From assembly GCA_011911785.1 (NCBI GenBank), contig GCA_011911785.1_4084.1: a stretch of 64,000 nucleotides of DNA; one strand, given 5' to 3'. The notes below the pieces were generated by a model that was not told where the DNA came from, made no database searches, and was given only the letters and a program-made list of their open reading frames with translations. Positions 37,501-55,243 of this stretch are shown in pieces. Numbering within the stretch: position 1 is the stretch's first letter; every line of letters begins with the position of its first letter. The position numbers and the translations under genes were made by a program. This DNA is from a phage.

Positions 37501-37883
37501 TGACTTACCGTGATTACTTTTGTATTTTTGAAATTGCAGTATTCGCTTTAGGTTCAGTCTGGTTACTTCTATACTACTTCTGTATTAATCCAGTATTCAA
37601 TTGGGTTCGTCGTGCTGAACAAAGTAGTGCTGGACAAATAGCAGTTGTTATGGGTATGACATATTATATGTTCGCCGTAGCTTCTGTTGTTATTGAAGTA
37701 ATATTTGGTGGCATGAATGGTGATGATGGGGCAACGTTCTATGGATTCGTAACATTCTTTAGTGTGCTGATTCCGTGTGGTGCTCTTATTATTACTGCGT
37801 TCTATTGGCTATATCGTGGTGTTAAGAAGCTGGAATCAATTCACGTAGATATGCGTTCAAAACGAATGGGGATTGACAAATAA
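37500..37883 (+). CDS. small multi-pass membrane protein
   Basis: TAATG overlap. Confidence 0.5.
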   Translation: MTYRDYFCIFEIAVFALGSVWLLLYYFCINPVFNWVRRAEQSSAGQIAVVMGMTYYMFAVASVVIEVIFGGMNGDDGATFYGFVTFFSVLIPCGALIITAFYWLYRGVKKLESIHVDMRSKRMGIDK

Positions 37884-38434
37884 TGAAACGAAGTTCTAAT
37901 GTCATTCGTGAACGATTTCGTAAAGTAAAAACTATTAAGTACGGGACTATTGCTCTTGTACTTAGTAGTACTTTTATTATGACAGGATGTGAACGCTCTG
38001 AAGATATTTCTGTATATCAGAATGTGGACCAATGTAAAAGAAGTGGTAGCAATCCGGTACAATGTGAAGATGATTATAAAAAAGCCCTAACTGAATCGGA
38101 AAAGGTAGCACCAAAATATAGTTCACAGAGTGATTGCTCAAGCGATTTTGGTAATCAATGTCAACAACATAGTTCGGGATTCTTTTGGATTCCAATCATG
38201 AGCGGGTTCCATAGTAGTGGTAATGGGTTTGCTAGTCAACCACTATACAACTCTAAAGGGAACTACTATGATGCTGGTGGTAACTCCTACGGTAGCAGTA
38301 CTGCAAAAGGTACAACACGTACTGTATCAAGTTCCGCATTAGCTCCAAAACCTCCTACAACGACCACAATCACCCGCAATGGGTTTGGGTCTTCAATAGC
38401 CAGAAGTGCCGCTCACACGAGTTCTGGTGGATAA
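37883..38434 (+). CDS. lipoprotein (lipobox IMTGC), Gly/Ser-rich C-terminal region
   Basis: Signal anchor plus lipobox; convergent with the first beta-propeller gene. Confidence 0.55.
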   Translation: MKRSSNVIRERFRKVKTIKYGTIALVLSSTFIMTGCERSEDISVYQNVDQCKRSGSNPVQCEDDYKKALTESEKVAPKYSSQSDCSSDFGNQCQQHSSGFFWIPIMSGFHSSGNGFASQPLYNSKGNYYDAGGNSYGSSTAKGTTRTVSSSALAPKPPTTTTITRNGFGSSIARSAAHTSSGG

Positions 38435-38435
38435 T

Positions 38436-38464
38436 AAAAAAGCCCACTTAATGTGGGCTTTTTG
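38436..38464. terminator. bidirectional intrinsic terminator (AGCCCAC...GTGGGCT)
   Basis: Hairpin with A-run upstream and T-run downstream. Confidence 0.7.
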
Positions 38465-41398
38465 TTATTTGTGTTTTATGTGTAAAGTATCTAATATTGT
38501 ATTGAACAATGATTTAGCAGAAATCATGATTACTTGATCAAAATCTTTAGTATAAGAAATATTAGCAGTACTGGAAGAATCTTTCACCTCATCCGGTAAT
38601 GCATCAAACTCTTCTTTTTCCATAATCTTTTCAAGTTCTTCACGAGAAATGGCTTTTACGTTTTCAATAGTCCTTAGTTGTATATTATAATCTTTATAAT
38701 ACGAAACTAAGTTCGTTGCGTATGAACCATCTTTAGATGCTGTTCCAGTAAAATCATAACATCCTGTATCAGTACTAACCCAATCGATTTTCCCTGAGCT
38801 ACCACTATATACACCTTTGTTAAATTTAATATTAACAACATCGCCAATAGTTTTCAATATACCACCTTTACATTCATTAAATGCGTTTAATTGATAACTT
38901 GTAGTCATATAGAATTTCGGTTCTAATGTAACAGTATCACCTACAGTTGCTTTCATGTCAGAAACACTTAAGAACAATTCATTAAATCCTTTTGAATAAG
39001 TCTTGGTAATTGTTGTTCCATCCCTGTTAGTTACTGTGTATTCTAAGTCCAATTCACAAATACTATTCAATGATAAGTAAGGGATATCAAATTTATCAGT
39101 ACTAGCATCATAAGGACATCTTGATGATGGTAGTATACCAGTAGGGTTTGGTACGTATTGAACTTTTGTTAACTCATACCCGCTTGCATTCGCTGGTGTA
39201 ACTGTAATAGACGGTGTAGATATTCCTTTCATTCCACAGAAGTATATGTTATCTGGAAAATCATTTATTACGAAGTCAGTGACAGGAATATCATAAGTAT
39301 CTTTATCAGTCCAATTGAGAACAACATTAGAACTGGTTGGATCAACAATATGTTCACTAGAACCACAGAAATATACTGATTTGGTATTAGTAATCATTAG
39401 TAATGTTTTGGATGATGAGTTCAATTCAAGAACATCTTTCACTTCAAGACCAGATGGTAATGTCAATGGTAACTTCGTGAATGATGTTAAATCTTGTTCA
39501 TCTTTAACACCACTAGTCCCCGCCGGAAACTTACCTGAACCATAGAAAACACCTTTATTCGTCATGAAATACATGAACGGGGTTGATGTTCCTTTGTCAA
39601 ATAGTTTAATGTCATCACATGTTAAACCATCAGGTAAACTTACTTTAGATGGAGTTCTATAAACACCAGGCTTAATACCACCTTCACCATTACTTACATC
39701 ACCTAGTACATATAAATCTTTACCTAGTTTCAAGAACATTGATTTATTTTTAGCACACAAGAATGTATCATATGATTTATCATCAATTGGTAGCTTGGTA
39801 TATTCGGTGTATGTAGGTATTGAATCATCAATCCACGAACTATCACCACTAATGTAAATGTGATTGTTTCTGTCAATATAATATGAATACACATCAGTAC
39901 TGTTCATATATAAAGCATTTAGTGCATTTGTTTTCACTAAGTGATTGAACTTAAGAACTTGTTTTCCATCGTACTTATGGGAGTTGACACCAATATCACC
40001 ATTCAGGCTACTACCAAATGAATATATGTGACCACGTGGTAATAGAACTTGAACACCACTTTTGGTTAAATTATATTTGGAGTGCAAGAGATCGTTATAT
40101 ACAACTCTAACTTTCTTAAAGATATCAGTACATTCAATCCACGATTTAGATGGTGTACCATCCATTCCTATTATTGCTGGATCACCATAATAATAAGCTT
40201 TATTTTCATATGATATTTTAAAAGATGATTTACCATCTTTTGTATTAGCACTGAAATACACATCTTTACTATCTTTAATTGGATAAGTACTATTCTCTAC
40301 AAAAGTATTATATGAGATATCGTTGTTAGAACTATTAAGAACAAAAGAAGTAGATGTACTATTGGACTTATAGACTGCTACGGAAGATGTATCACTGAAA
40401 TCAATTTTAGTGAACGTATCTTTGTATGTTTCGTTTAATAATCCTACATAAAAAACATCAGTGCCATCAGTAACGAATATAGCATTTCTATTATTACATA
40501 AAGAAGTAATATTTTTTACTACTTTATTTGAATTATAGTTCGGTAACTTCTTTAATCCACGAACAAAATTATCACAAATAATACCAGTACCATAGAAGTT
40601 ATAATCTTTATCACAGTATATAAATGCTGTATCATATGGTGAAGTACTTAAATTCTTATAGAATGGGAATGGAGTGAATGTGAATTGTAGAACATTACGC
40701 AATTCCCCTACTGTCTCTGTTGGGAATTGTCTGTTTTTATTATTTCCAAGAAAAACAACTCTATCTGTTAGGTATGTGTACATAATTCCATATGGTTTTA
40801 CGTACAAGTCATTATATCCTAATGATAATTTAGTTGGTGATGTTAGTGGACCGGAATTTATTTTATTTTGGTTAAAAGAAAATTCATTTGAATTATAACC
40901 AGCCCCATATGTATTACCATCAGTACTTAAATAATATACAGTAGCTTCCCCTGCTCCAAGAAAAGTCTTTACATCAGTTGCTAACGTTTTTTTGAAAGTT
41001 GGATAAAATTTATTATATGTTCCCGTTCCCATCATCAGTTCACCATTGCGGTTATGACCACGAGCATATAGAATACCTTTGTCTGTATCTAAGAAGAACA
41101 TACCATTATATGTTTTGTAAATCTTACCTTTTGTAATATCGAAATTGGAAAAATCATCACTAATATCAATGAATATCGTCTCAAGGTTATTTTCAAGGGA
41201 GTTTAGAGATTTACCACAATACCATACTGAGTTATCTTTTTTAACAGCAACACAACCACACGGACTGGCATCAAAATATGTTACATCGGAAAGAACCAGA
41301 GATAAGTTCTTTGTACTGCAATAATTATCCATTGCATATAAATCGGAATCTTTAAGTATATATACGGAATTCCCTACCGCTTTAATCGAATTTATCAT
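38465..41398 (-). CDS. large beta-propeller-like protein with RCC1-like repeats (~977 aa); possible adhesin/fibre
   Basis: Start at ATG 41398 (GAGGA SD) preferred over 41488; recurring YxxGxNxxGxLG-type repeats; lacks the MLPFVR N-terminus. Confidence 0.55.
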   Translation of the reverse strand: MINSIKAVGNSVYILKDSDLYAMDNYCSTKNLSLVLSDVTYFDASPCGCVAVKKDNSVWYCGKSLNSLENNLETIFIDISDDFSNFDITKGKIYKTYNGMFFLDTDKGILYARGHNRNGELMMGTGTYNKFYPTFKKTLATDVKTFLGAGEATVYYLSTDGNTYGAGYNSNEFSFNQNKINSGPLTSPTKLSLGYNDLYVKPYGIMYTYLTDRVVFLGNNKNRQFPTETVGELRNVLQFTFTPFPFYKNLSTSPYDTAFIYCDKDYNFYGTGIICDNFVRGLKKLPNYNSNKVVKNITSLCNNRNAIFVTDGTDVFYVGLLNETYKDTFTKIDFSDTSSVAVYKSNSTSTSFVLNSSNNDISYNTFVENSTYPIKDSKDVYFSANTKDGKSSFKISYENKAYYYGDPAIIGMDGTPSKSWIECTDIFKKVRVVYNDLLHSKYNLTKSGVQVLLPRGHIYSFGSSLNGDIGVNSHKYDGKQVLKFNHLVKTNALNALYMNSTDVYSYYIDRNNHIYISGDSSWIDDSIPTYTEYTKLPIDDKSYDTFLCAKNKSMFLKLGKDLYVLGDVSNGEGGIKPGVYRTPSKVSLPDGLTCDDIKLFDKGTSTPFMYFMTNKGVFYGSGKFPAGTSGVKDEQDLTSFTKLPLTLPSGLEVKDVLELNSSSKTLLMITNTKSVYFCGSSEHIVDPTSSNVVLNWTDKDTYDIPVTDFVINDFPDNIYFCGMKGISTPSITVTPANASGYELTKVQYVPNPTGILPSSRCPYDASTDKFDIPYLSLNSICELDLEYTVTNRDGTTITKTYSKGFNELFLSVSDMKATVGDTVTLEPKFYMTTSYQLNAFNECKGGILKTIGDVVNIKFNKGVYSGSSGKIDWVSTDTGCYDFTGTASKDGSYATNLVSYYKDYNIQLRTIENVKAISREELEKIMEKEEFDALPDEVKDSSSTANISYTKDFDQVIMISAKSLFNTILDTLHIKHK

Positions 41399-41618
41399 GT
41401 TTATATCCTCATAAATTGATACCAATTCTAATGTATTTACCCACTTAAAGTACAAAAAATGATCAATTAAATGGGGAATCTTTAACAAATGAATTCATGA
41501 TGTACTTGATGAATTGCCCATACCAACGGATTCCCCAGTCCCAGCATACCACATGGTATTATCGAACTTTTTTATCATTGTAGTATCATAACCACACCAA
41601 ACATCATCAACATTAGTA

Positions 41619-42971
41619 TTACAACAATTGTATTTCTGTGAGTGTTTGATATGTTGTACCGTTGTACACACCTCTCCAATATACCCTACCTTCAGTACTA
41701 ACCACTAATAGTCCATATGTTGTAAACCCAAGAGTACCACCAACATACATAGCATCTTTAATTCGAATACCAATGTCTTCATATGTAAATGAAGCGACTG
41801 CTCCCGCTTGCCACGAAGGACTAGCGTAGTAATCACTATAAACACCATGTGCTTTATATATTGATGTTGTTCCTGGTTCAAAAATTACAGTTCCACAGTA
41901 GTTCATTCGTATTTTAGTACTGGATGAAGTCGGTACATTTATACCTATGCCATCTTTTATCCCTGTAGTTAGGACGTTAAAACCACCCGCCACACGGTTG
42001 ACGTCATTCTCACCGATTAAAAACATACCAACGTTGTAGCCCATATAATATACACTGCTACTGCCATTCCAGAAAGAAAAACCACCACCATTACCACAGC
42101 GATATAGTTGTGAATTTGAGCAGTACATCATACCTTCGTTTGTCGCATCAAATTCATCTGCTGTTCCTATTGTAGCTACAGTAGTCCACGTTTTAATCAC
42201 TTGGTTTGTACTAGCTGGTGTTTGTATACCATATCGTATATTATATCCCTTACCAACGATTGTACCATCTTCTAATTTAGCATAAAGTACAGGTCTATTA
42301 CCAACAAAATACATATTATTGTGTGACATGTCTATTGTGCATCTTAATGAAACTACTTTTTGTGTCAATTGATTATCTTTAGTAAAAGAAGTAAAGTAGT
42401 AATCCGATGTTGAGTTGTTTATTAAACCTTGTATTGACAATCCCATATACCAGATTTCACCATTGCTGTTTAATGCTGCCAAAATACAACTATATTTTGA
42501 AGTGTATGCTGGTGATGTTGTTGAAGTTGCTGGTCCTTTATCATATCCACCACAGAATACCATCTCCACAACTTCACCTACGTTCGCAAAATAAGAAGAT
42601 ACATTGATAAAACCATTTGTTATAAAAGGTGCTGTATTCATACTTGAATGTGTGAATATCCCATTTGCATATACACCACAAAAATGATATGAACCATCAT
42701 TATCTTGGACTATTATTCCATTTGATAGTAACCAAAAATTGTTTACATTTTTTCTTACTAATTCAACTCCTGCACCATTGGTTGGTGTTATACCAAAAGA
42801 AACATATTTTGTTTGACCAATACCATATAAATTTCCATTAGTTGCTAGTATTGCACCAAACCAGTTCCCACCACCATTCCTATCATGACCCATACCAATG
42901 GAGTCGAATTTCTTTACAGTAGGAACTTCAACTTTATTCCCATACTCTAGCATTCTAACAAAAGGTAACAT
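41619..42971 (-). CDS. beta-propeller family protein, MLPFVRMLEYGN N-terminal module
   Basis: Start at internal ATG behind AAGGAGGA; shared N-terminus; RCC1-like repeats. Confidence 0.65.
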   Translation of the reverse strand: MLPFVRMLEYGNKVEVPTVKKFDSIGMGHDRNGGGNWFGAILATNGNLYGIGQTKYVSFGITPTNGAGVELVRKNVNNFWLLSNGIIVQDNDGSYHFCGVYANGIFTHSSMNTAPFITNGFINVSSYFANVGEVVEMVFCGGYDKGPATSTTSPAYTSKYSCILAALNSNGEIWYMGLSIQGLINNSTSDYYFTSFTKDNQLTQKVVSLRCTIDMSHNNMYFVGNRPVLYAKLEDGTIVGKGYNIRYGIQTPASTNQVIKTWTTVATIGTADEFDATNEGMMYCSNSQLYRCGNGGGFSFWNGSSSVYYMGYNVGMFLIGENDVNRVAGGFNVLTTGIKDGIGINVPTSSSTKIRMNYCGTVIFEPGTTSIYKAHGVYSDYYASPSWQAGAVASFTYEDIGIRIKDAMYVGGTLGFTTYGLLVVSTEGRVYWRGVYNGTTYQTLTEIQLL

Positions 42972-43016
42972 ATATCCTCCTTTATTCATTATATTATATT
43001 TAATCAAAAAAGAAAA

Positions 43017-43035
43017 GCCAGTACAGAGTACTGGC
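43017..43035 (-). terminator. intrinsic terminator (GCCAGTAC-NNN-GTACTGGC), array cassette
   Basis: Perfect 8-bp stem followed on the minus strand by a T-rich run. Confidence 0.6.
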
Positions 43036-43046
43036 ATTTAAAATAA

Positions 43047-44222
43047 TCAAAATGTAGGAAGTTTGAATTCTCTCATAACAGATGAACTGCTTGCAGATAC
43101 ATTATCTGGTGATTTCCCTGCGTAGTATAATTTATTATCAATGAACATATACAATGTTGCATCATTTCCTGCTACAAGCGATTCACTTTTCTTAAATTTA
43201 ACACCACTAGGTAAAATTGCTTCAACAAATGAACCTGATTCTCGTGTAGTATTATTTGCCAATTGACCATTGTTATTATAACCAGTACTATAAATTTTAC
43301 CTGAACTATAATATACGAGTCCACGAGTACTAGTGTTTTCTATTCGAATGAATTCACTATCATCTGGAACTGTCGTTGATAGTACTGGGTTTAACTTATA
43401 AGCAGATGATACATTATTATTACCCAATTGACCATAACCTTGAAAGCCTAGTGTATACATAGGACATGATTCTGGTGTACCTTTTGTTATAATACCAATA
43501 TAATTCGTACTACAAAAAATGTCTATTACTTCTGTAATAGGTGTACCCTTATATTGAACCCAAGGGAATACATACGATTGTTGCTTACCATTTCCCAAAG
43601 TACCGGAAGTTGTTGTCCCAGTACGCCACATTGTATCATCAAGTTTAATAATCCAGTTAGCTGTCGTTATCGATGAACAGAATTTTTTAACATTATCCAC
43701 TAAAAATGTAAATTGATTATAATATGATGCAGTGTTTATACCAAACTTAGCACCAGTATTATCACCTAACAAATATAAACTATTATCTGTACCTAAAATC
43801 AAAGCATAATCATAACCCACGTATATATCTTTAATTCTTGAAATTCCAAATTGTGTAAAATAGCTTGTACATTCTGTGAATGTTGTTATATTATTGGTTG
43901 TATTATTACCCAGCCATTTATCTAAACCACTATAAAAGAATCTATCATCATTTGTGCGTATTAGACAAAAAGCGTTCATTGTACTGCACCAAAAATCTTT
44001 AACATTGCTATATATTTTTGTCCATTCAGTTAGTGGATTAGTATGACCTAAACCAAAAATTCCACCATTCTGAAGACCAATAGCCCATATTGAACCATTT
44101 TTATCAAGCATCATTGTACATGTATGTGAATAACCACCCGATGGTGTAACTAATTTAACAAAATTGGGAATATATGGTAAAACTTTATTTCCATAATCCA
44201 ACATTCTAACAAAAGGTAACAT
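43047..44222 (-). CDS. beta-propeller family protein, MLPFVRMLDYGN N-terminal module
   Basis: Conserved start context and N-terminus. Confidence 0.65.
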   Translation of the reverse strand: MLPFVRMLDYGNKVLPYIPNFVKLVTPSGGYSHTCTMMLDKNGSIWAIGLQNGGIFGLGHTNPLTEWTKIYSNVKDFWCSTMNAFCLIRTNDDRFFYSGLDKWLGNNTTNNITTFTECTSYFTQFGISRIKDIYVGYDYALILGTDNSLYLLGDNTGAKFGINTASYYNQFTFLVDNVKKFCSSITTANWIIKLDDTMWRTGTTTSGTLGNGKQQSYVFPWVQYKGTPITEVIDIFCSTNYIGIITKGTPESCPMYTLGFQGYGQLGNNNVSSAYKLNPVLSTTVPDDSEFIRIENTSTRGLVYYSSGKIYSTGYNNNGQLANNTTRESGSFVEAILPSGVKFKKSESLVAGNDATLYMFIDNKLYYAGKSPDNVSASSSSVMREFKLPTF

Positions 44223-44266
44223 ATTCCCTCCTTTATTCATTATACTATATTTAATCAAAAAGAAAT

Positions 44267-44285
44267 GCCAGCATCAAGTACTGGC
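44267..44285 (-). terminator. intrinsic terminator, array cassette (imperfect)
   Basis: GCCAGCATCAAGTACTGGC hairpin. Confidence 0.45.
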
Positions 44286-44292
44286 GAAATTA

Positions 44293-45483
44293 TTACAATT
44301 GTCTAGGTGTATCCAGAACATATCTATTTGTACTAGGACCACCATCATCATACGTTCCGGTTGAATATATATTTTTCATATCAGCAGTTAAAAATGTACG
44401 ATACGAACCTCTATATATTTTTATTTTATCATACATAGAATATGTTATTTGTGCTGGCAGTGGACATGCAGTAAATCTACCAATAGTAACATTAGAACCA
44501 ACACCCAATGTACCAGCATAACTACTCTCATTTAAACCAGTTGCATATACACCAGTACTCGTAACTAGTATACTAGATTGTGTTGGATATCCAGTATGGA
44601 TTGAATACAACGTGCCAGTTGGTAGAGTAGTACTATTATTTCCTAATACTGCTAGTGCTGTACTAGTCGTAGTGTTATTACCCCATGCACCATTCCTAGC
44701 TAAACCACCCACAAGGAACTGGCGTGCTCCTGTACTTGGATTTTCAACTAAAGCACTGACCGCACCACTTGAACAACCAGTGTATTGTAACGTTTTTGTA
44801 TATGTTGTACTTGGCTGATATAAAGTATATTCATTATAGGGAGTCCATGTGGTACTGGTACTTATACCTGACGTACCACCACCAATATATAAATTATTTT
44901 GTGTATCAAAAAACATTACACAGTTATTTGTTGACTGTATTTGTGCAATATCAACATTAGGCGTGACAGCTTTTACAAATGATCCATCTGTTATTTGTTG
45001 AGTACTACCAGTACCATCAGCGAATTGTCTAGCCCCACTCCAACCAGTACTCCATATTGTATTATTATCCATTAATACCGTAAACCACGTAGTACCTCCA
45101 TACATCTGTTTAATTGAAGTACTTGAACTTTGCGTGTACAAATTTTCAATATATTGGTTATAACTTAAAAACGTAGTAGTACTAGTTGGTAAACCAATAT
45201 GATCACCATATCCACAATAAAAATAATTTGAGTCATTATCTTTTACTAATAAAGTTCCTTGTGTAACCCAGCAATCATTAACGTTTTCTCTAATTAATGT
45301 CCATGATTTTAATGCAGTGTTGTTTCCCCTCCCAAATTTCCCAAAACTATTATCCCCACGTGCATATAGTTGACCATCCGTATACAGAACAACAACATCT
45401 AAATCAGTTGGGATTATTTTCTTAATTTGAAGTGGTACTGGGGTAATATTCCCATAATCAAATAATCTAACAAAAGGTAACAT
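44293..45483 (-). CDS. beta-propeller family protein, MLPFVRLFDYGN N-terminal module
   Basis: Conserved start context and N-terminus. Confidence 0.65.
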   Translation of the reverse strand: MLPFVRLFDYGNITPVPLQIKKIIPTDLDVVVLYTDGQLYARGDNSFGKFGRGNNTALKSWTLIRENVNDCWVTQGTLLVKDNDSNYFYCGYGDHIGLPTSTTTFLSYNQYIENLYTQSSSTSIKQMYGGTTWFTVLMDNNTIWSTGWSGARQFADGTGSTQQITDGSFVKAVTPNVDIAQIQSTNNCVMFFDTQNNLYIGGGTSGISTSTTWTPYNEYTLYQPSTTYTKTLQYTGCSSGAVSALVENPSTGARQFLVGGLARNGAWGNNTTTSTALAVLGNNSTTLPTGTLYSIHTGYPTQSSILVTSTGVYATGLNESSYAGTLGVGSNVTIGRFTACPLPAQITYSMYDKIKIYRGSYRTFLTADMKNIYSTGTYDDGGPSTNRYVLDTPRQL

Positions 45484-45529
45484 ATATTCCTCCTTTATTC
45501 ATTATACTATATTTACCCCAAAAAGAAAT

Positions 45530-45548
45530 GCCAGTATCAAGTACTGGC
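45530..45548 (-). terminator. intrinsic terminator, array cassette
   Basis: GCCAGTATCAAGTACTGGC hairpin. Confidence 0.5.
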
Positions 45549-45554
45549 CTATAT

Positions 45555-46724
45555 TTAAACTGGTGAATCTAATACAAATTCTAAACTACTAATGCCACCA
45601 TATGTGACATTTGTCCCTGTGCTATATACAAAATTACCATCAGTTATATAAGTTCGGTTATACCCACCTGCCATCTGCGACTTACTATAATCAAACCCAT
45701 CAGGAACGATTGCTTTGGTATATACTAATGCATTATTAGATGTACCAATACCTAACATACCAGCTTCTGAAGATTTATTGTAGCCGCAACAATATATACC
45801 ATCTGTTGTAGCAATAACTTGGTTATAATATGAAGTAATGTTAGCAATGCTTACTACATCACCGGGTGGCATTAGTGAAGCAGTTTGAACCTCAAATGCT
45901 CTATAATCACTGAGAGAACCATTTATCCCATCTGCTTGTGCACCAAATATTCTCGAACCGCCATTTGCGATGATGGTTTTACCAGTGGGATCAGTACCAA
46001 TTGCCATTGCCATTGAAGTACTATTCTCCATATAGTACTTGATATTAATTGTATTTCTTAAGCTGGTAGGAGCACCATAATATATAGTATATAACTTACC
46101 TCCTGAACTTGTAACTGCATTTACTCTTCCTGTATAAAATAGCCATCCTTGGTTTGTAACATAACCGTGCATTAAATTACTTGCAAACAATTTAACAGGT
46201 AATTGATCTGCTGCGGTCGGAACAGTACTTTTGACGAATTTTCTAGCAACATTGTTAGTTGTTGTCCCATCACCCAACTGACCATCACCCCCTGCTCCAG
46301 TACTCCATATTGTTTGGTCTGTTAGTAATACACTTGTAGTCTGATAACTAACTGCTATATCTAATATTGGTAATGTTAACGTATCGAATGTTGGCATAGC
46401 AGAAGTCCATATTGATACTGCTGCCCCTGGCATACCAACAGTTGTTGAACTTCCACTGTACCATATTTCATCATTGCTTTTCTTAATAACTATCGACGTG
46501 GCTCCCATCCAAAAATCTTGAACATCAGAAGTGCTAAAAGTCCATGTAGTAACAATATTTTTGTGACCTAAACCCAAAAGACCATTTGCATTCTCACCAC
46601 GCACATATAAATCACCACTGTTTGTTAAAACAGCAACATTATAGTTGTTAGCTAGTATTTTTTTAATATTTGGTTTAGCAGGTGCAATATTCCCATACTC
46701 TAACATTCTTACAAAAGGTAACAT
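45555..46724 (-). CDS. beta-propeller family protein, MLPFVRMLEYGN N-terminal module
   Basis: Conserved start context and N-terminus; GxGGDGQLGDG-like repeats. Confidence 0.65.
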   Translation of the reverse strand: MLPFVRMLEYGNIAPAKPNIKKILANNYNVAVLTNSGDLYVRGENANGLLGLGHKNIVTTWTFSTSDVQDFWMGATSIVIKKSNDEIWYSGSSTTVGMPGAAVSIWTSAMPTFDTLTLPILDIAVSYQTTSVLLTDQTIWSTGAGGDGQLGDGTTTNNVARKFVKSTVPTAADQLPVKLFASNLMHGYVTNQGWLFYTGRVNAVTSSGGKLYTIYYGAPTSLRNTINIKYYMENSTSMAMAIGTDPTGKTIIANGGSRIFGAQADGINGSLSDYRAFEVQTASLMPPGDVVSIANITSYYNQVIATTDGIYCCGYNKSSEAGMLGIGTSNNALVYTKAIVPDGFDYSKSQMAGGYNRTYITDGNFVYSTGTNVTYGGISSLEFVLDSPV

Positions 46725-46769
46725 AATTCCTCCTTTATTCATTATATTATATTTAATCCAAATAAGAAA

Positions 46770-46788
46770 GCCAGTATCAAGTACTGGC
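46770..46788 (-). terminator. intrinsic terminator, array cassette
   Basis: GCCAGTATCAAGTACTGGC hairpin. Confidence 0.5.
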
Positions 46789-46794
46789 TTTAAT

Positions 46795-47943
46795 TCATTG
46801 TATAAATGACATATCAACTTCGGTATATCTTGTAGTGTACTGCCCAGAACTTCCACCCATTACTAGATTGGAAAAACCAGTATAAAATAACTTACCTTCA
46901 TCTGTGAGAATCAAACTACCGATGTTATTCAGTACTAAACTGTAAGAACTATTAAAATTAGCATAGGACTGGGTATAATAGAACTGATTTGTAAGATTAC
47001 CAACACCCAATTGTCCACCAGTGTTAACCCCAGTTGCAAATATCGTAGTACCAAATCTGCGAATATGCGAGGCCATATTGCCGACGCAACAATGTACATT
47101 CTGAACATCCGAATTCAATAAAGTTGGTGTTGTGTATTGCTTAAGTGTTGTGCCTGTACCGAATTCATTACCATATGATACCCCATACTGTGTACCACAA
47201 GCGTACAATTTATTATCATCTTTAATAAAAAATGTACTCTGATAACTTACATCGACATCTATAACATTAGTCTGTATTCTAACAACTCCAGTACTAGCAG
47301 TTTGATTGCCTGTCCCTAACTGATAGTAAGTGTTAATACCACAACCCCATAATGTATTATCTTCTTTTAGGTATATGTTACCAACAGCTTTTTTTACCGA
47401 TGATATGGCTTCAATCTTAACAAAGGCGTTAAATGAATTTGTATTTGTGCCATTACCAAAAGATGATCTGGTTGATGTGCTGTTTGTTCCGCAGCAATAT
47501 AAAGTACCATCAGTTGTTATCAAATTCACTTTAAGATCACTGTAACTACTCATGTATTTTATATCAGAAACATTAATACCACTGGATGTTATCCATGAAG
47601 TACAATCTGTCCACGTGTTATAATATGCACCTGAACCAGAAAACGCACTCGGACTTCCTGTTATAAACACTTTTCCAGTACCGTCTTCTTCATATAATTG
47701 ACAACCACTACTGTTATTTTCCAAAAGAACTCTTTTAACATTAGTTGCACTAAGAATAAATTTACTTGACGATACACCAGTCCCCGTACCCTGACTGACT
47801 GCTGCTGAAGCATACAAATTTTTAGTGTATGTATCATGAAAATACATAGCACTACCACCGGAATATATTTTAAAACGTGTACTAGGATCTGGTGGAATTG
47901 GTGCAATATTCCCATAATCTAACATTCTTACAAAAGGTAACAT
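46795..47943 (-). CDS. beta-propeller family protein, MLPFVRMLDYGN N-terminal module
   Basis: Conserved start context; YYQLGTGN, GGQLGVGN repeats. Confidence 0.65.
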   Translation of the reverse strand: MLPFVRMLDYGNIAPIPPDPSTRFKIYSGGSAMYFHDTYTKNLYASAAVSQGTGTGVSSSKFILSATNVKRVLLENNSSGCQLYEEDGTGKVFITGSPSAFSGSGAYYNTWTDCTSWITSSGINVSDIKYMSSYSDLKVNLITTDGTLYCCGTNSTSTRSSFGNGTNTNSFNAFVKIEAISSVKKAVGNIYLKEDNTLWGCGINTYYQLGTGNQTASTGVVRIQTNVIDVDVSYQSTFFIKDDNKLYACGTQYGVSYGNEFGTGTTLKQYTTPTLLNSDVQNVHCCVGNMASHIRRFGTTIFATGVNTGGQLGVGNLTNQFYYTQSYANFNSSYSLVLNNIGSLILTDEGKLFYTGFSNLVMGGSSGQYTTRYTEVDMSFIQ

Positions 47944-47988
47944 AATTCCTCCTTTATTCATTATATTATATTTAATCCAAATAAGAAA

Positions 47989-48007
47989 GCCAGTATCAAG
48001 TACTGGC
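47989..48007 (-). terminator. intrinsic terminator, array cassette
   Basis: GCCAGTATCAAGTACTGGC hairpin. Confidence 0.5.
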
Positions 48008-48013
48008 ATTATG

Positions 48014-49123
48014 TTATTTTGGTAAATCAATTTTAGTAAAGACTGCAACATCCTCGCTTGCACCGGGAATGGCGTAATACGTTCCAGTACTATATACATC
48101 TCCATTTTTGGTTAATATTGAAGTCAAACCATCACTAAAAAGAACATCCCTAATCTCACTAACTTCAACGGGTAATTGTAAATTTGTAGCACTATATATA
48201 GCACCAGTTTGAGAATTGTTTAATCCCAAACCACGGTTCGCCCCAACACCCTTCTGATATGTACTGGTAATTACCATTTGTGTAGCAGTATTTAATGCAG
48301 GTGAATTCGTCATAAACAACGGAGAACTATTAGGAAAAGTACTTGCAGGAACTGCACGGAATGTAGTCGTGCCTGAACTAAGAAAGTTTGGAGTTTGACC
48401 ACATACGAAATATGATGTACCATTATAGTAATTAAATGCATTACCACCAATGGCTGCATCGATTACACCAGAACTACGTAATCCCCAAGTGTTAATTTGT
48501 GTTTGGTCCCCTGTACCATGCTGCCCACTGCTATTCCATCCAGAACTATATAGCTTATTATCTAATGTAATATACATACTATCATTTGCATTAGTCATTA
48601 CTTTACGCACGTTAGTAGCACATTGAGTTAATGTGTAAATCGATGATGAGCCAATACCTAAAGAACCACGATATCCATTATCTCCTGCACCATAGAGTAC
48701 TGAACTAGTGCTAAGTACAAATATTAAACCATTTGTACATACAATATTAGCAATTTCACTCACTGGTATAGCATTGGTAAACCAATTAGTCCTTTCAACT
48801 AATATAGTACTGTAAGAAGTAGTTGTAGAAGATGAGAACCAGTACGTTTCACCCGATGTCCATATCGTATTATCATTTTTAATAATAACAAGTGTACGAC
48901 CACCCACGAAAAAATTAGAAACATCTGAACTTACTAATATCCATGAAGATACCGTGTTGTTATTACCATTTCCAGATTCACCACCTTGATTTCTACCTAT
49001 GTAATATAAATCATGTGAATCAGTCAATAAGAATTGACCTTGTGTAGAAGCACCAACTTTAATTATATTTTTAGGACCAGGTACAATATTCCCATACTCT
49101 AACATTCTAACAAAAGGTAACAT
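48014..49123 (-). CDS. beta-propeller family protein, MLPFVRMLEYGN N-terminal module
   Basis: Conserved start context and N-terminus. Confidence 0.65.
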   Translation of the reverse strand: MLPFVRMLEYGNIVPGPKNIIKVGASTQGQFLLTDSHDLYYIGRNQGGESGNGNNNTVSSWILVSSDVSNFFVGGRTLVIIKNDNTIWTSGETYWFSSSTTTSYSTILVERTNWFTNAIPVSEIANIVCTNGLIFVLSTSSVLYGAGDNGYRGSLGIGSSSIYTLTQCATNVRKVMTNANDSMYITLDNKLYSSGWNSSGQHGTGDQTQINTWGLRSSGVIDAAIGGNAFNYYNGTSYFVCGQTPNFLSSGTTTFRAVPASTFPNSSPLFMTNSPALNTATQMVITSTYQKGVGANRGLGLNNSQTGAIYSATNLQLPVEVSEIRDVLFSDGLTSILTKNGDVYSTGTYYAIPGASEDVAVFTKIDLPK

Positions 49124-49169
49124 AATTCCTCCTTTATTCATTATACTATATTTAATACAAATAAGAAAA

Positions 49170-49188
49170 GCCAGTACAGAGTACTGGC
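49170..49188 (-). terminator. intrinsic terminator, array cassette
   Basis: GCCAGTACAGAGTACTGGC hairpin. Confidence 0.6.
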
Positions 49189-49195
49189 TATTATA

Positions 49196-50338
49196 TTATT
49201 TCCACGGTAGAAGTGAATCAGGAACTCTGGTTGGTACTCTAACGGCTGGAACATTTCCAAGTTCAGGTAAACCACTCATATACAAATTGTTATTTTCATC
49301 AATTATCATTGAATAGAAATTATCAATTACGAAGCCTGAAATTCGTCTTCCTTCTAATGCATCAAGAACCATTTCGGTGAAAGTTAGTATATTTTCGGAT
49401 GTTTGATTAACACCACATGCACCATAGGTATTTCGACCACAAGTATATAACTTATTATTATTTTTAACAACACATCCATTCCCTTCGTTGTTGGATAAAC
49501 CACCCACCAACTCTATTTCACCTTGGAATGATAAATTGGGAATTAATGTACTCATTGGTACTGCTGATACTCTACCTACACCAGCTTGACCATATGCATT
49601 TGGTGAAGCAACCTTCACTGAACCATCATTAAGAAATATATATGAAGTACGGTATGTATTTACAGCTTGTATAGCATTGGTGATCGTATTGTCTTTTGTA
49701 AAACTTAATATATTTGATGTTGTTGTACTACCAGGAGCAACAGTATTTCCTGCATACCAATAGGAGCCATCATCAAGTACTAACCCAGTACTGAGCAAAG
49801 AACAGCCATAACTTTTAACATTTTCTATAGTGCTGTATCTGAACGATGTGACATTAGCTGTTGACGCGTTACCAAATACACCACCTTCGCCAGCACCACA
49901 GTAGAACCATTTTCCATTTTTTAAAAATACACGCAAATTCTGCCCAACAGCAATACCATCAATATCATCAGCACTGACACCAAAATCAGTGAAGTACTGG
50001 GTTACATCAATCCAAACCCCATTTGTATTTGTTCCGATTTGTGGCATTACTATACTAGCACCTGTGAACCAAATAGTTCCATCATTCTTAATGGCAATGG
50101 AACCAAGAACACCACCCCAGTAACGTTCAATATTATTATTCACACGGGTCCATACGGTGGATGATTGTAATGAACCATTACCACCTTGTCCAAATGAAGA
50201 TGAACCATACCAGTACAAGTCACCATTAACATGCAAATAAAAACGAGTATTATAATTTGCTTGTAATCTATTTTTAAATAGAGGTTTTGGTTCTGGTGCT
50301 TCATTTCCATACTCTAACATTCTAGCAAAAGGTAACAT
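49196..50338 (-). CDS. beta-propeller family protein, MLPFARMLEYGN; near-duplicate of 50412..51554
   Basis: Same length (380 aa) and long identical stretches with neighbour. Confidence 0.7.
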   Translation of the reverse strand: MLPFARMLEYGNEAPEPKPLFKNRLQANYNTRFYLHVNGDLYWYGSSSFGQGGNGSLQSSTVWTRVNNNIERYWGGVLGSIAIKNDGTIWFTGASIVMPQIGTNTNGVWIDVTQYFTDFGVSADDIDGIAVGQNLRVFLKNGKWFYCGAGEGGVFGNASTANVTSFRYSTIENVKSYGCSLLSTGLVLDDGSYWYAGNTVAPGSTTTSNILSFTKDNTITNAIQAVNTYRTSYIFLNDGSVKVASPNAYGQAGVGRVSAVPMSTLIPNLSFQGEIELVGGLSNNEGNGCVVKNNNKLYTCGRNTYGACGVNQTSENILTFTEMVLDALEGRRISGFVIDNFYSMIIDENNNLYMSGLPELGNVPAVRVPTRVPDSLLPWK

Positions 50339-50385
50339 AATTTCCTCCTTTATTCATTATACTATATTTAATACAAATAAGAAAA

Positions 50386-50404
50386 GCCAGTACAGAGTAC
50401 TGGC
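50386..50404 (-). terminator. intrinsic terminator, array cassette
   Basis: GCCAGTACAGAGTACTGGC hairpin. Confidence 0.6.
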
Positions 50405-50411
50405 TATTATA

Positions 50412-51554
50412 TTATTTCCACGGTAGAAGTGAATCAGGAACCCTTGTCGGTACATTTGTAGTAGACACCCCATCAAGATTTGGTACACCGCATGTATATA
50501 AATTATCAGCATCGTCAACTAACATCGTATAGTTATATCCCCTACAAAAACTACTAACATTACGACCTTCTAATGCAGTAAGAATCATTTCAGTGAATGT
50601 TGTTATATTTGTCGAGGTTGAACCAACACCACATTGTCCATTTGAATTAAGACCACATAAAAATAACTTATTATCATTTTTAATTATACAGGATGGTCCA
50701 GTAAGGTTTGTACCAAGCTCACCCACTAACTCTATTTCACCTTGGAATGCTAAATTTGGAATTAATGTACTCATAGGGGCTGGTGTTGTATTCCCAGTAC
50801 CTGCTTGACCACGTTCGTTGGAAGATGCAACTTTAACTGTTCCATCACTAAGAAATATATAGGAAGTTTCAATTGTATTGACTGCTTTAATTGCAGTGCT
50901 GATAGAAGTTTCTTGTGTAAATCTTAGCACGTTTTGTGCTGACGTTCCCGATATAAACGTATTACCTGCATACCAATATGTACCATCATTGAGTACTAAT
51001 GCAGTACTTCGAATTGCACAACCAGCACTTCGAACATTTTCTATAGTACTGTACGTGAATTGTGAAACGCTTGCCGATGAACCATTTCCGAATACACCAC
51101 CACTCCCAGCACCACAGAAGAACCACTTTCCATTTTTCAAAAATACACGCATACACGCAGATATAACAATACTATCAATATCATCAGCACTGACACCGAA
51201 ATCAGCAAAGTGCGATGTCACATCAACCCAAACACCGTTAGTGTTTGATGCAATTACTGGAATAACAGAACTTGTACCAGTGTACCAAATAGTACCATCT
51301 TTCTTTATCGCTATTGTTCCTTGAACACCACCCCAATATCGTACAACATTTGTATTGACGAGAGTCCATGCGGTTGAAGAGTTCAATGAACCATTACCAC
51401 CTTGACCATATGATGAAGAACCAAACCAATATAGATTACCATTGGTGTGTAAATAAAATTTGGCATCTGCCGAGCATTGTAACCTATTTTTTAATCGTGG
51501 TGCGGGTTCCGGTGCAATATTCCCGTACTCTAACATTCTTGCAAAAGGTAACAT
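50412..51554 (-). CDS. beta-propeller family protein, MLPFARMLEYGN
   Basis: Starts 12 nt after upstream gene stop (co-transcribed). Confidence 0.7.
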   Translation of the reverse strand: MLPFARMLEYGNIAPEPAPRLKNRLQCSADAKFYLHTNGNLYWFGSSSYGQGGNGSLNSSTAWTLVNTNVVRYWGGVQGTIAIKKDGTIWYTGTSSVIPVIASNTNGVWVDVTSHFADFGVSADDIDSIVISACMRVFLKNGKWFFCGAGSGGVFGNGSSASVSQFTYSTIENVRSAGCAIRSTALVLNDGTYWYAGNTFISGTSAQNVLRFTQETSISTAIKAVNTIETSYIFLSDGTVKVASSNERGQAGTGNTTPAPMSTLIPNLAFQGEIELVGELGTNLTGPSCIIKNDNKLFLCGLNSNGQCGVGSTSTNITTFTEMILTALEGRNVSSFCRGYNYTMLVDDADNLYTCGVPNLDGVSTTNVPTRVPDSLLPWK

Positions 51555-51566
51555 AATTCCTCCATA

Positions 51567-52463
51567 TTATTTAAAAACATACTGCGTATTAACACGAGTG
51601 CCATTGTCAAAACCAAGTACATAAAATATCTCAGCACTATTCTTAGAACCAAATAACGCACCAGTACTACTACTCAAAGTAGTATTAACCGCTAAGGGAA
51701 TCCATATGTCTTCTTCTGCATCGTATCTCAATAAATTTAATGCACCATACGACACTGCATATATATTTTTATCATATGTACTGTAACATATTTTACTAGG
51801 GTTATTACCACCAACTGGTGCTATGTTAGACCACACCGCACTTTGTATATGATATTTTTGTGCAGTACTAGTACCTTGACCAGTAATATATATGTAAGTA
51901 CCATCCGTACACATATCACCACCTCCATTGTTATTTGTTCCATCACTTGTACCTAATGATGACCATGTATTAGTACTTGGAGTATAACTGTATAACGAAT
52001 TATTAGTAGGCGAACCCCACAAATATATCTTATCCCCAGCAGTAATCATCTTACTATACGCCAGTTGACTAGGCTTCCCAATACTGTTAGTGTTCAGAAT
52101 CCATGTATTTGTACTTATATTATATACATAAAAATTATTACTACTATTACCTGAACCACCAAACAAATATATTTTTCCCTGATAAGCACATAACGCACTA
52201 CCAAATGTAGATACAGGTGCATTGGCTAATTGTGACCACGTTCTTGTAGTTAAATTAAAACTCCATAACTGATTATCCGTCTGCACCGCATTCTGTATAC
52301 CACCAAATATATAAGCAATATTACTTTCCGCATCATACGTATAACCAAAGTTATTTCGTGCTGAAGGTACTGGTGTTGTAGTAAATTGTGTTCGTACTCC
52401 ACCATTTGGGCCAGGTAATGGACCTACATTCCCGAACTCAAACATTCTAACAAAAGGTAACAT
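51567..52463 (-). CDS. beta-propeller family protein, MLPFVRMFEFGN; Kelch-like repeats
   Basis: Conserved cassette start; IYLFGG/IYIFGG-type motifs. Confidence 0.65.
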   Translation of the reverse strand: MLPFVRMFEFGNVGPLPGPNGGVRTQFTTTPVPSARNNFGYTYDAESNIAYIFGGIQNAVQTDNQLWSFNLTTRTWSQLANAPVSTFGSALCAYQGKIYLFGGSGNSSNNFYVYNISTNTWILNTNSIGKPSQLAYSKMITAGDKIYLWGSPTNNSLYSYTPSTNTWSSLGTSDGTNNNGGGDMCTDGTYIYITGQGTSTAQKYHIQSAVWSNIAPVGGNNPSKICYSTYDKNIYAVSYGALNLLRYDAEEDIWIPLAVNTTLSSSTGALFGSKNSAEIFYVLGFDNGTRVNTQYVFK

Positions 52464-52511
52464 AATTCCTCCTTTATTCATTATACTATATTTAATCAAA
52501 AAAGAAAACCC

Positions 52512-52540
52512 TTGACACCCTTTCAGTACTGATGTACTAT
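52512..52540 (+). promoter_or_regulatory. sigma70-type promoter (TTGACA-17-TACTAT) for the small-gene array, divergent from beta-propeller array
   Basis: Hexamers in the 100-bp divergent intergenic region. Confidence 0.5.
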
Positions 52541-52565
52541 ATGAGAAATCTAAGGAGAATCGTAC

Positions 52566-52793
52566 ATGCCATATGCTCTAAAGTACTACATCAATGAACT
52601 AAATGAACTAGAGTACGCAAAGGTTCTCTCTGACCAATCGTGGCTAATTGAACTAAAAAATCATAAGAGCACAGGGTGTAACCTTATGCTTGGTAGTGCA
52701 CTGAATACCCTTACTGTGAGCATTGTACACAATACACTATTAGGGGATACCCGTAAACAATTTTTAAACATCTTAGTACTAGTGGCTATATGA
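52566..52793 (+). CDS. small protein, first gene of tandem small-paralog array
   Basis: ATG after AAGGAGAA. Confidence 0.55.
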   Translation: MPYALKYYINELNELEYAKVLSDQSWLIELKNHKSTGCNLMLGSALNTLTVSIVHNTLLGDTRKQFLNILVLVAI

Positions 52794-52990
52794 ACATTAA
52801 CCCGTACTACATCAATGCATTGCACCCTGGGCTACAAGATGCAATGAAGAACCAAAAAACAGTACTGAAAAATGCTAAACGCATACCAGGACTCCTGAAC
52901 TCAAACAGGAATAACCTCATATGGAATGCAATAGAAGGTAACGAAAGTATGCAGTACTATTTCATCTTAACACTACTATTGGAGTACTAA
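52790..52990 (+). CDS. small paralog-array protein
   Basis: ATGA overlap. Confidence 0.5.
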   Translation: MNINPYYINALHPGLQDAMKNQKTVLKNAKRIPGLLNSNRNNLIWNAIEGNESMQYYFILTLLLEY

Positions 52991-52991
52991 T

Positions 52992-53201
52992 ATGAATACT
53001 GAACATAAAGAATTCTACACCAAATACCTCAGCAACGAAGAACAAATGTTTCTAAGGAGTGTACCACCTGTAAGTATAGACACACCCAACACAAGGAATT
53101 GCTTTAATAATTGTATACGTAGTACTCTAGAAGCTATTGAATGCAATAACAAAAATATGCAGTACTCAAGTTTAATCGGACTAATATACTTCTATGAATA
53201 A
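52992..53201 (+). CDS. small paralog-array protein (HKEFYTKYL N-terminal motif)
   Basis: Starts 2 nt after stop; family motifs. Confidence 0.55.
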   Translation: MNTEHKEFYTKYLSNEEQMFLRSVPPVSIDTPNTRNCFNNCIRSTLEAIECNNKNMQYSSLIGLIYFYE

Positions 53202-53385
53202 TCATAAAGATTTCTACTGTAGTAAACTACACGAACAATACAGGGACTCATTCCCTCAAGAACCTATGAGAAAGAATAGTCCCTTTTATAATTACGATTT
53301 CAGGTTGGAGACACGTTATGCAATAGAACAACCATTTACTTCAACTAAGTACCGCTCTATCCTGAACCTCATCTTTAAGTTCTAA
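53194..53385 (+). CDS. small paralog-array protein (HKDFYCSKL)
   Basis: Family motifs. Confidence 0.5.
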   Translation: MNNHKDFYCSKLHEQYRDSFPQEPMRKNSPFYNYDFRLETRYAIEQPFTSTKYRSILNLIFKF

Positions 53386-53605
53386 AAAGGTACTATATGA
53401 AAACTACAAACATTCATCAGTACTACATAGATATTCTCCCTAAAGATATACAGTTCATACTTAAACAAGAATTCAGTACTTTTTAAAAACTTAAAAGAAC
53501 CGCACCGAATGTACTCATCCAGCACCAAAAAAATGTCGTGCGTAATATTCTACAAGGTGCAACAGGGACCGAGTACTTTAATATAGTAAGGCTAATTACA
53601 TTACA

Positions 53606-53791
53606 ATGAATCATATAAGCTACTATTACCAAAAACTATCCGACAGAGACAAGTACAGCCACAACTCCCATGTGTGGTACTACAAACGCGGCAGTATAAG
53701 AGACAAACAACATTACTTCTGTACTGCTATAAAAGAAACACTAACAACTAAGTACACGTACAGAGCAGTACTTAAACTTATTGAAATGTAG
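53606..53791 (+). CDS. small paralog-array protein
   Basis: Family-like termini. Confidence 0.5.
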   Translation: MNHISYYYQKLSDRDKYSHNSHVWYYKRGSIRDKQHYFCTAIKETLTTKYTYRAVLKLIEM

Positions 53792-53799
53792 AGAATACA

Positions 53800-53979: not shown

Positions 53980-53989
53980 GGAATAAACT

Positions 53990-54169: not shown

Positions 54170-54197
54170 GCAGTATAAGCAATTTAAGGAGACTAAA

Positions 54198-55044: not shown

Positions 55045-55045
55045 T

Positions 55046-55234: not shown

Positions 55235-55243
55235 GGAAATCAT

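Follow-up and report, generated by a model that had tools for sequence, protein, structure and literature searches.

The phage phAPEC6 has been reported to encode "eleven RCC1-like proteins", attributed to tandem duplication and proposed to have a role in DNA ordering and possibly in the construction of an inner body (PMC7247149). The same gene family is found at the same locus in Mimasvirus CBB, like phAPEC6 a phage with 'hairy' fibres (PMC7247149, PMC5259590), and in the 64,000-nucleotide stretch of phage DNA analysed here (contig GCA_011911785.1_4084.1; the window). In the window, this family forms an array of ten back-to-back minus-strand genes encoding nine RCC1-like propellers and one Kelch propeller, nine of which share an N-terminal dodecapeptide, hereafter the tag. 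The shared N-terminus, its conservation across folds and genera, the intergenic cassettes that accompany it in the window and their shuffling are all unmentioned in the phAPEC6 and CBB papers (PMC7247149, PMC5259590), and a full-text literature search for the tag motif or concept and for the cassette found no description. A preliminary description of the window had not recognised a described system; this applies to the tag and the cassette in the literature searched, but not to the RCC1-like array and its virion association, which had been published (PMC7247149). What appears to be new, beside the known array, is the tag with its wide distribution and its persistence in virions, as well as the cassette with its late-type promoter and the shuffling that it drives. 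We propose that the locus would constitute a hyper-variable bank of late-expressed virion accessory proteins.

By analogy, the closest experimentally validated counterpart of the tag is receptor-binding protein 2 (RBP2) of the KP32/K11/KP34-type Klebsiella podophages, whose conserved N-terminal peptide docks onto RBP1 through a T4 gp10-like branching domain of the latter. Incorporation into the virion requires this peptide and needs nothing more, and foreign enzymatic domains can be brought in by it (PMC13352976). In both systems a short conserved N-terminal peptide directly precedes an exchangeable host-recognition body, a putative one in the present case. However, the RBP2 peptide has 29 residues and belongs to one trimeric tailspike per phage, whereas the tag has 12, is predicted to lie outside the fold and heads 9-16 monomeric propellers or lectins of at least four fold types; the two peptides share no sequence similarity. 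A second parallel is offered by the internal proteins of T4, for which Mullaney and Black, and Repoila and colleagues in 1994, are said to have described a capsid targeting sequence (CTS) and a hyperplastic locus. The prohead protease removes the CTS by a cut after (L/I)xE; the T4 proteins themselves are small, basic and internal. The likeness lies in a constant N-terminal tag of about ten residues, unrelated bodies, a locus that varies among relatives and a T4-related head assembly; in contrast to the CTS, the present tag has no conserved (L/I)xE site and is retained in CBB virions, and its bodies are large and low-charge. This analogy is architectural, with no sequence similarity between CTS and tag. 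The intergenic cassettes, in turn, recall the promoter-early stem-loop (PeSL) elements reportedly described by Arbiol and colleagues in 2010 as mobile regulatory cassettes of T4-type phages. Both consist of a stem-loop and a promoter repeated between genes of a plastic region, as recombination substrates shuffling modules. Whereas PeSL elements carry sigma-70 early promoters, the window cassettes lack a -35 element, bear a TAAATA motif common to structural genes and, unlike PeSL elements, belong to a repeat that runs through the Shine-Dalgarno (SD) sequence into the first 12 codons.

The window derives from a giant Escherichia coli phage of the genus Asteriusvirus (121Q/PBECO4/phAPEC6 group). 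In megablast searches, its region 38000-53000 matched 37 jumbo myovirus records, nearly all from Asteriusvirus Escherichia phages such as 121Q, PBECO4, phAPEC6 and G17; the nearest relative is phage A4, with 97.9% identity across 38000-46788. Translation of the open reading frames (ORFs) confirmed that nine array genes open with MLPF[VA]R[ML][LF][ED][YF]GN, followed by a Pro-rich linker. The motif LPF[VAI]R occurs nowhere outside these tags in the six-frame translation of the 64 kb. The tags are at least 75% identical to one another, compared with 17-30% for the bodies behind them (65% for the closest pair), a contrast far beyond chance. In the AlphaFold2 (AF2) model of the protein encoded at 45555-46724, residues 1-12 have a predicted local distance difference test (pLDDT) score below 50 and residues 11-20 average about 64, which places the tag outside the predicted propeller fold. 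An alternative idea, that the tag contributes a velcro strand within the propeller, was ruled out, as residues 1-12 are unstructured in this model and the tag also occurs on LamG proteins and other non-propellers. The tag can thus be regarded as a separate N-terminal module on variable bodies, as the preliminary description had suggested.

Tags of the consensus M[LI]PFx[RQKI]hhxY[GA]N are found in the Asteriusviruses examined, Pectobacterium phage CBB, Salmonella phage Munch and Xanthomonas phage XbC2. Every gene of the syntenic array is tagged in A4 (8 genes), UE-S1 (9), phAPEC6 (13 unique genes), CBB (9, plus 1 elsewhere), Munch (14, with MIPFxRILxYGN) and XbC2 (11, with MLPFPQLVxYGN); fewer tagged proteins were seen in partial metagenomic loci. 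Kelch homologues of Erwinia Eneladusvirus also align starting at residue 1. In phAPEC6, a scan of 95% of the genome, that is all but 322001-339999 (18 kb), found the tag confined to the array. The bodies behind the tag include RCC1-like and Kelch propellers, an RCC1+Kelch fusion, Laminin_G_3/ConA-like lectins and proteins lacking any Pfam family, and one tag allele alone heads at least 39 body clusters at under 50% identity. An exhaustive hmmsearch of 1.84e9 cluster representatives with a 30-residue N-terminal profile returned 42 matches. The tag is N-terminal in 39 of these (at residue 1 in 38, and at residue 6 in one probably mis-called start), and every body that was checked behind it proved to be RCC1-like or Kelch. 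The remaining three matches are unrelated proteins with Pro-rich repeats. A degenerate DNA pattern scan of IMG/VR recovered five contigs but missed the Asteriusviruses, and is therefore no measure of distribution.

Two side observations concern the tagged genes of relatives. The phAPEC6 record MK817115 leaves three tagged ORFs unannotated (2434-3543, 6063-7253 and 7325-8059, segment numbering) and repeats about 2.4 kb, corresponding to two array genes, at both ends of the 'circular' record; counted correctly, the phage has 13 tagged genes instead of the eleven given in print. Furthermore, a second tag subtype, MLPF[SP]I[IVM][SN]x(YGN), with Ile in place of Arg at position 6, is present in CBB, IMG/VR contigs and XbC2, two XbC2 copies being devoid of YGN. 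It occurs together with the main type in the same arrays and may be a sign of a second docking site.

Within the window, the codons of the tag are near-invariant (P3 is CCT and R6 is AGA in 9/9 genes) and contiguous with the conserved cassette, and cassette and 5' coding sequence (CDS) together form a conversion hot spot. These features could suggest that the shared N-terminus has no function at the protein level and arises as a side effect of DNA repeats (promoter, 5' untranslated region and translation-initiation region) that reach into the genes and are homogenised by gene conversion. The other genera argue strongly against it. In Munch, XbC2 and CBB, positions P3, F4, R6, Y10, G11 and N12 use two to five synonymous codons, and residues peculiar to one genome (I2 in Munch; P5 and Q6 in XbC2) are likewise kept although their codons vary synonymously. 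Since the invariant residues use many synonymous codons, the tag must be kept by selection on the protein. In the same three phages the upstream DNA is unconserved and many array genes are translationally coupled, which, together with the codon variation, rules out a purely DNA- or RNA-level explanation; a by-product of this kind appears highly improbable. On these sequence comparisons, the tag is an ancient protein-level feature, and gene conversion clearly operates in the window on top of this older constraint.

Published virion mass spectrometry (MS) supplies a link between tagged proteins and particles. The phAPEC6 virion table includes gp003, 005, 006, 007, 009, 010, 549 and 551 (PMC7247149), and our genome scan shows that all eight of these entries are tagged array ORFs. 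In CBB, the proteins CBB_536, 537, 548, 549, 551 and 552 are MS-identified structural proteins, and the Kelch/LamG cluster proteins are treated as candidates for tail "whiskers" (PMC5259590). The tagged orthologues are therefore virion-associated in both phages. The peptide-level data in the CBB supplement also inform on the fate of the tag. One virion peptide, LFEYANVIIPPNYK, corresponds to residues 7-20 of CBB_536 and is preceded by R6; another, YANVIVEYATK, corresponds to residues 10-20 of CBB_548. As residues 7-12 are still present in purified CBB virions, the cleavage after ML(E/D) envisaged in the preliminary description is refuted: the virion peptides span or abut the proposed site intact. 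Position 9 is moreover variable, being E/D in the window and A4, K/N in phAPEC6 and UE-S1, Q/K/A/E in CBB and S/T/N/D/K in Munch, with V also seen among relatives, so that no residue is conserved there.

These observations bear on the main rival explanation, in which the tag would be a T4-like capsid targeting sequence that binds the scaffolding core, the variable proteins being packaged in the head, perhaps in an inner body, and injected, for example as anti-defence effectors. The T4 internal protein locus is a close architectural parallel: it too combines a constant N-terminus of about ten residues with bodies that vary, and it is hyperplastic, with regulatory cassettes that recur along it. 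Head genes of the T4 type, one for a prohead core protease among them, are present in the phage, the phAPEC6 authors themselves suggested that RCC1-like proteins might build an inner body, and virion MS is blind to inside versus outside. However, neither a Glu nor a protease site is conserved (E, D, K, N, Q, V or A at position 9), and in CBB_536, which does have an L-F-E motif, the virion peptide crosses the E9-Y10 bond uncleaved. In addition, the lectin and propeller bodies are low-charge (pI 5-8), unlike basic DNA-associated internal proteins, and the LamG domains of jumbo phages have been linked to fibres and surface components. Capsid targeting thus seems unlikely, while still deserving serious consideration.

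The bodies themselves support the beta-propeller identity claimed in the preliminary description. Counting sub-threshold matches, eight of the ten array proteins match the RCC1 family in Pfam (RCC1/RCC1_2/WD40_RLD). RCC1 and/or RCC1_2 exceed the curated cut-off in six genes (those starting at 43047, 45555, 46795, 48014, 49196 and 50412); the gene at 44293 falls just under it with an RCC1-type score of 20.5 against a cut-off of 22, and the gene at 38465 has a WD40_RLD match below threshold only. The protein of 51567-52463 matches Kelch_1, _2, _3, _4 and _6 and a KLHDC2-type domain, all above the Pfam cut-off. The AF2 model of 45555-46724 is of high confidence (pLDDT 85.5, predicted TM-score (pTM) 0.86), and Foldseek aligns it with UVR8, RCC1 and the HERC2 RCC1-like domain (RLD) at TM-scores of 0.65-0.77 and E-values down to 9e-21; its UVR8/RCC1-like propeller matches reach 0.75-0.77, with UVR8 as the best. 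The divergent protein of 41619-42971 has no Pfam match at all but matches the phage RCC1 family PHROG 4219 (E 2.8e-16). Its AF2 model is of low confidence (pLDDT 60, pTM 0.66), with UVR8 and HERC2 RCC1-like domains as best matches, which is suggestive of a seven-bladed RCC1-like propeller. A PDB sequence search found no solved phage homologue, and only eukaryotic RCC1, RPGR and UVR8.

In relatives, GenBank names the array genes "putative DNA condensation protein", "regulator of chromosome condensation" or "kelch-like protein". Taken at face value, these names, and a speculation in the phAPEC6 paper (PMC7247149), would make the products RCC1-like factors acting on phage or host DNA. The name, however, is carried over from eukaryotic RCC1, whereas the fold is a generic propeller with UVR8 as its best match. 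The array proteins are not basic but have a pI of 5.2-8.0, few K/R and 35-46% S/T/N/G/Q, a composition that is adhesin-like as judged from sequence. Kelch and LamG lectin proteins share the same tag and locus, and the hypervariable gene content fits host-interaction genes rather than a core DNA function. The DNA-ordering role is thus not favoured by the present data, a condensation function can hardly be credited, and the annotation is probably misleading, the evidence favouring late virion-borne binding modules.

The cassettes between the array genes contain a 27-nt core, TAAATATA[G/A]TATAATGAATAAAGGAGG, present in eight copies in the 64 kb (five exact and three with one mismatch) and restricted to the array even when four mismatches are allowed. 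Seven units combine a hairpin with the promoter, and one is promoter-only. The seven GC-rich hairpins, each with a T-run, lie in intergenic gaps on the minus strand and take the forms GCCAGTAC-TCT-GTACTGGC and GCCAGTA-CTTGA-TACTGGC, plus one imperfect copy; the region holds 17 terminator-like sites against 6.8 +/- 2.9 in shuffles. The cassettes noticed in the preliminary description are therefore real, with eight near-identical copies, but their exceptions had been partly misassigned. The gene 41619-42971, thought to share the SD and start only, has a full cassette upstream (hairpin 43017-43035), and it is this gene, and not 43047-44222, that has no downstream terminator. The 12-nt junction before 50412-51554 (51555-51566) does carry GGAGG alone, as described, and this gene is probably co-transcribed with the Kelch gene.

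The promoter of the cassettes had been taken for a plain TATAAT element. A sigma-70 promoter was dropped, as there is no acceptable -35 element in the cassette and a sigma-70 consensus scan showed no enrichment (79 found versus 83.7 expected). What is conserved is TAAATA, at -31/-32 in all eight cassettes. In phAPEC6, this hexamer has 228 copies on both strands of 334 kb (about 0.03 expected per 90 nt) and precedes, at a distance of 20-60 nt, 21 of the 31 inspected genes for structural or virion-proteome products, including the major capsid, sheath, wedge and neck proteins; the array genes are preceded by it likewise. The CBB authors proposed ATAAATA as the late promoter, to be recognised by a sigma factor resembling gp55 of T4; a gene for a factor of this kind is present in phAPEC6. 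The cassette promoter is thus more probably of the T4-late TAAATA type than a sigma-70 TATAAT. As a side observation, TAAATA is strongly depleted across phAPEC6 and essentially reserved for the 20-60 nt upstream of structural genes, which makes it usable as a late-promoter predictor in this phage group.

Comparison with A4 gives insight into the turnover of the units. Two stretches of the window, 38000-46791 and 47900-52463, are collinear with A4, where their counterparts have 111 bp in common, namely the repeat of cassette and 5' CDS. With this repeat at the junction, exactly one unit (46795-47943) must have been gained or lost by cassette recombination. Between the two phages there are 39 differences in 47900-52463, 28 of which fall in the cassettes and the first 60 coding nucleotides, although these make up only 584 nt (12.8%) of the interval; the gene bodies are nearly identical. 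The cassettes are thus, from this pattern, recombination hot spots, and the shuffling through cassettes that the preliminary description had anticipated is borne out. Order and content of the units vary among the four Asteriusviruses compared, and the Kelch unit is found in just five Asteriusvirus records. In a recent paper, "chromosome condensation regulators" are named among the proteins that differ most between two phages belonging to one species.

Tag positions 5, 8 and 9 track the genome and not the body, so that orthologous bodies bear different tag alleles: the window and A4 have VRM[LF][ED], whereas phAPEC6 and UE-S1 have [GA]RM[VI]K. The rule is broken by one unit of foreign appearance in UE-S1 and by one hybrid tag in A4. 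The latter, MLPFGRMLVYGN (17800-18909, A4 segment numbering), mixes both Asteriusvirus alleles in front of a body 99% identical to that of 48014-49123; its sequence indicates a conversion tract ending within the 36-nt tag.

These results can be combined into a model in which each unit would be self-contained, with a terminator hairpin ending the previous unit, a T4-late-type TAAATA promoter, a strong SD sequence and a gene. The protein would consist of three parts: (i) an invariant address peptide, M-L-P-F-x-R-h-h-x-Y-G-N, that is not removed; (ii) a short flexible Pro-rich linker; and (iii) a variable ligand-binding body, RCC1-like or Kelch here, and LamG/ConA-like lectin or unclassified in related genera. 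The address peptide would attach the body, a monomer, to a single acceptor on the virion exterior that all units have in common; asteriusviruses and CBB-type phages bear unusual fibres, both hair-like and decoration fibres, on their heads and tails. Many alternative modules that act as adhesins or bind the host surface would then be rivals for the same virion sites, while recombination between repeated cassettes reaching into the tag codons would add, delete, reorder and exchange units between phages. We read the tag as a virion-incorporation signal on interchangeable binding modules because a late-type promoter coincides with virion MS in two genera and a retained, unstructured peptide and linker, and because the tag, exclusive to one hypervariable locus, precedes several unrelated ligand-binding folds of low-charge composition. 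Of the anchoring or virion-targeting signal suggested in the preliminary description, the virion association of orthologues and the separate module stand, the cleavable option falls, and docking and receptor binding are inferred. For external docking through the tag with a role in adhesion or host range, the balance tips slightly in favour.

Several points weigh against this proposal. Tag retention is seen in two proteins of CBB only and from residue 7 onward, residues 1-6 forming a tryptic hexapeptide that was not observed. The phAPEC6 identifications are thin, with one to five peptides per protein, and the published MS used whole virions, in which inside and outside positions are indistinguishable. 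The late timing of array expression is read from the promoter motif, not from RNA. The untagged 977-residue member shows that the tag is not obligatory for array membership, and the uniformity of tags within an Asteriusvirus genome can be explained by gene conversion alone, with no need for a co-evolving partner. As for the acceptor, self-similarity comparisons revealed no repeated docking sites in large phAPEC6 virion proteins, and Pfam, which may miss such a domain, detected no gp10-like branching domain in seven candidates from the phAPEC6 baseplate, fibres and virion proteome.

The same lack of an acceptor in the self-similarity and Pfam checks would suit a different explanation, in which the tag is a recognition signal for a phage assembly or processing factor, such as a chaperone, a ClpA-like AAA+ protein or a modifying enzyme, and the bodies attach themselves. 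That conservation begins at residue 1 suggests recognition of a free N-terminus. Besides ClpP, GroES and a protein for tail-fibre assembly, the phage has a Clp ATPase whose gene lies in the structural module. However, unrelated folds (RCC1, Kelch, LamG and unclassified) would each need an attachment surface of their own, the tag being their sole common element, and the tag is retained in mature CBB particles. We consider such a signal improbable as well.

A bolder extension of external docking would be a clade-wide 'plug-and-display' system, in which one 12-residue peptide, M[LI]PFx[RQ]hhxYGN, loads a large, fast-exchanging pan-repertoire of monomeric propellers and lectins onto a single acceptor on the hair-like fibres of head and tail. 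It would span at least four lineages (Asteriusvirus, Mimasvirus, Munch-like and, probably, Eneladusvirus/GAP32-like phages), with tag alleles (E/D9 versus K9, I2, P5-Q6) that would co-evolve with the acceptor. We put this forward tentatively, as a possibility leaning towards doubtful. If true, phages would have a means, not recognised before, of building an adhesin coat that is combinatorial and of mixed occupancy. Should the tag prove to be a portable docking signal, its 12 residues and a linker would be enough to display arbitrary proteins on a very large particle, which, by analogy with KP32, would be of use in phage engineering. The tag also offers a testable handle on the cargo of the hair-like decorations and on adsorption breadth in jumbo phages of the 121Q/phAPEC6/CBB type, and the cassette of terminator, late promoter, SD and tag is a clear natural example of a gene bank kept shuffle-ready.

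The coordinates of the array are given in Table 1. All ten ORFs listed in the preliminary description are present, with one start codon corrected (that of the gene at 46795 from 47946 to 47943). The pair 49196-50338 and 50412-51554, described as near-duplicates, is just 65% identical in protein and 74% in DNA. The gene listed there as the first, 38465-41398, does lack the tag and is convergent with a lipoprotein gene, of the DUF1190 family.

Table 1. Genes and regulatory elements of the propeller array, from its first gene to the shared terminator (window positions)
Feature	Position	Strand	Evidence
Tagged Kelch-type propeller, first gene of the array, 298 aa (MLPFVRMFEFGN)	51567..52463	-	Pfam Kelch_1/4/6 and KLHDC2-type above cut-offs; ORF; tag
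Cassette without canonical hairpin: T-run, TAAATA 52489-52494, TATAAT, AAGGAGG	52464..52512	-	sequence motifs
12-nt junction, GGAGG only; TAAATA at -19 overlaps stop codon	51555..51566	-	
Tagged RCC1-like propeller, 380 aa (MLPFARMLEYGN)	50412..51554	-	ORF, Pfam, tag
Full cassette: hairpin 50385-50405, T-run, TAAATA 50365-50370, SD	50339..50405	-	
Tagged RCC1-like propeller, 380 aa; 65% identical to 50412-51554	49196..50338	-	ORF, Pfam
Full cassette: hairpin 49169-49189, TAAATA 49149-49154	49124..49189	-	
Tagged RCC1-like propeller, 369 aa	48014..49123	-	ORF, Pfam
Full cassette: hairpin 47989-48007, TAAATA 47969-47974	47944..48007	-	
Tagged RCC1-like propeller, 382 aa; unit absent from A4	46795..47943	-	ORF, Pfam, A4 comparison
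Full cassette: hairpin 46767-46791, TAAATA 46750-46755; A4 collinearity breaks here	46725..46791	-	
Tagged RCC1-like propeller, 389 aa; seven-bladed in AF2 model, tag residues 1-12 outside fold	45555..46724	-	Pfam, AF2
Full cassette: hairpin 45530-45548, TAAATA 45510-45515	45484..45548	-	
Tagged RCC1-like propeller, 396 aa (MLPFVRLFDYGN)	44293..45483	-	ORF, Pfam
Full cassette, imperfect hairpin 44267-44285 (GCCAGTACTTGATGCTGGC); TAAATA 44248-44253	44223..44285	-	
Tagged RCC1-like propeller, 391 aa	43047..44222	-	ORF, Pfam
Full cassette: hairpin 43017-43035, TAAATA 42997-43002	42972..43035	-	
Tagged divergent RCC1-like protein, 450 aa; no terminator after gene	41619..42971	-	PHROG 4219, AF2 matches; no Pfam match
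TAAATA 41 nt 5' of untagged gene, candidate late-type promoter of its own	41434..41439	-	
Untagged 977-aa protein, last array gene; RCC1-like region at residues ~385-700, long C-terminal extension	38465..41398	-	
Bidirectional terminator hairpin, common to array end and convergent DUF1190 lipoprotein gene	38437..38463	.	terminator scan

The untagged protein begins exactly at the propeller start of the tagged proteins, with neither tag nor linker, and has a C-terminal extension of about 280 residues. Its gene corresponds to two separate CDS in A4 (9466-12403, A4 segment numbering) and is missing from phAPEC6. On the plus strand, convergent with the array, the segment 35646-38434 encodes five to six small paralogous multi-transmembrane proteins (106-152 aa) followed by the DUF1190 lipoprotein (37883-38434, Pfam E 2.2e-31). 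A DUF1190 gene and a run of small membrane proteins flank the tagged array in CBB, XbC2, Munch and phAPEC6 as well, a linkage conserved across genera. On the other side and divergent from the array, about 15 consecutive small ORFs of 47-102 aa, many with overlapping stop and start codons, occupy 52566-56222 (+), a segment of unusually high AT skew (0.16-0.21). Farther away, five tRNA genes (Gly-TCC, Ser-GCT, Met-CAT, Asn-GTT and Thr-TGT) are located at 922-3217 on the plus strand.

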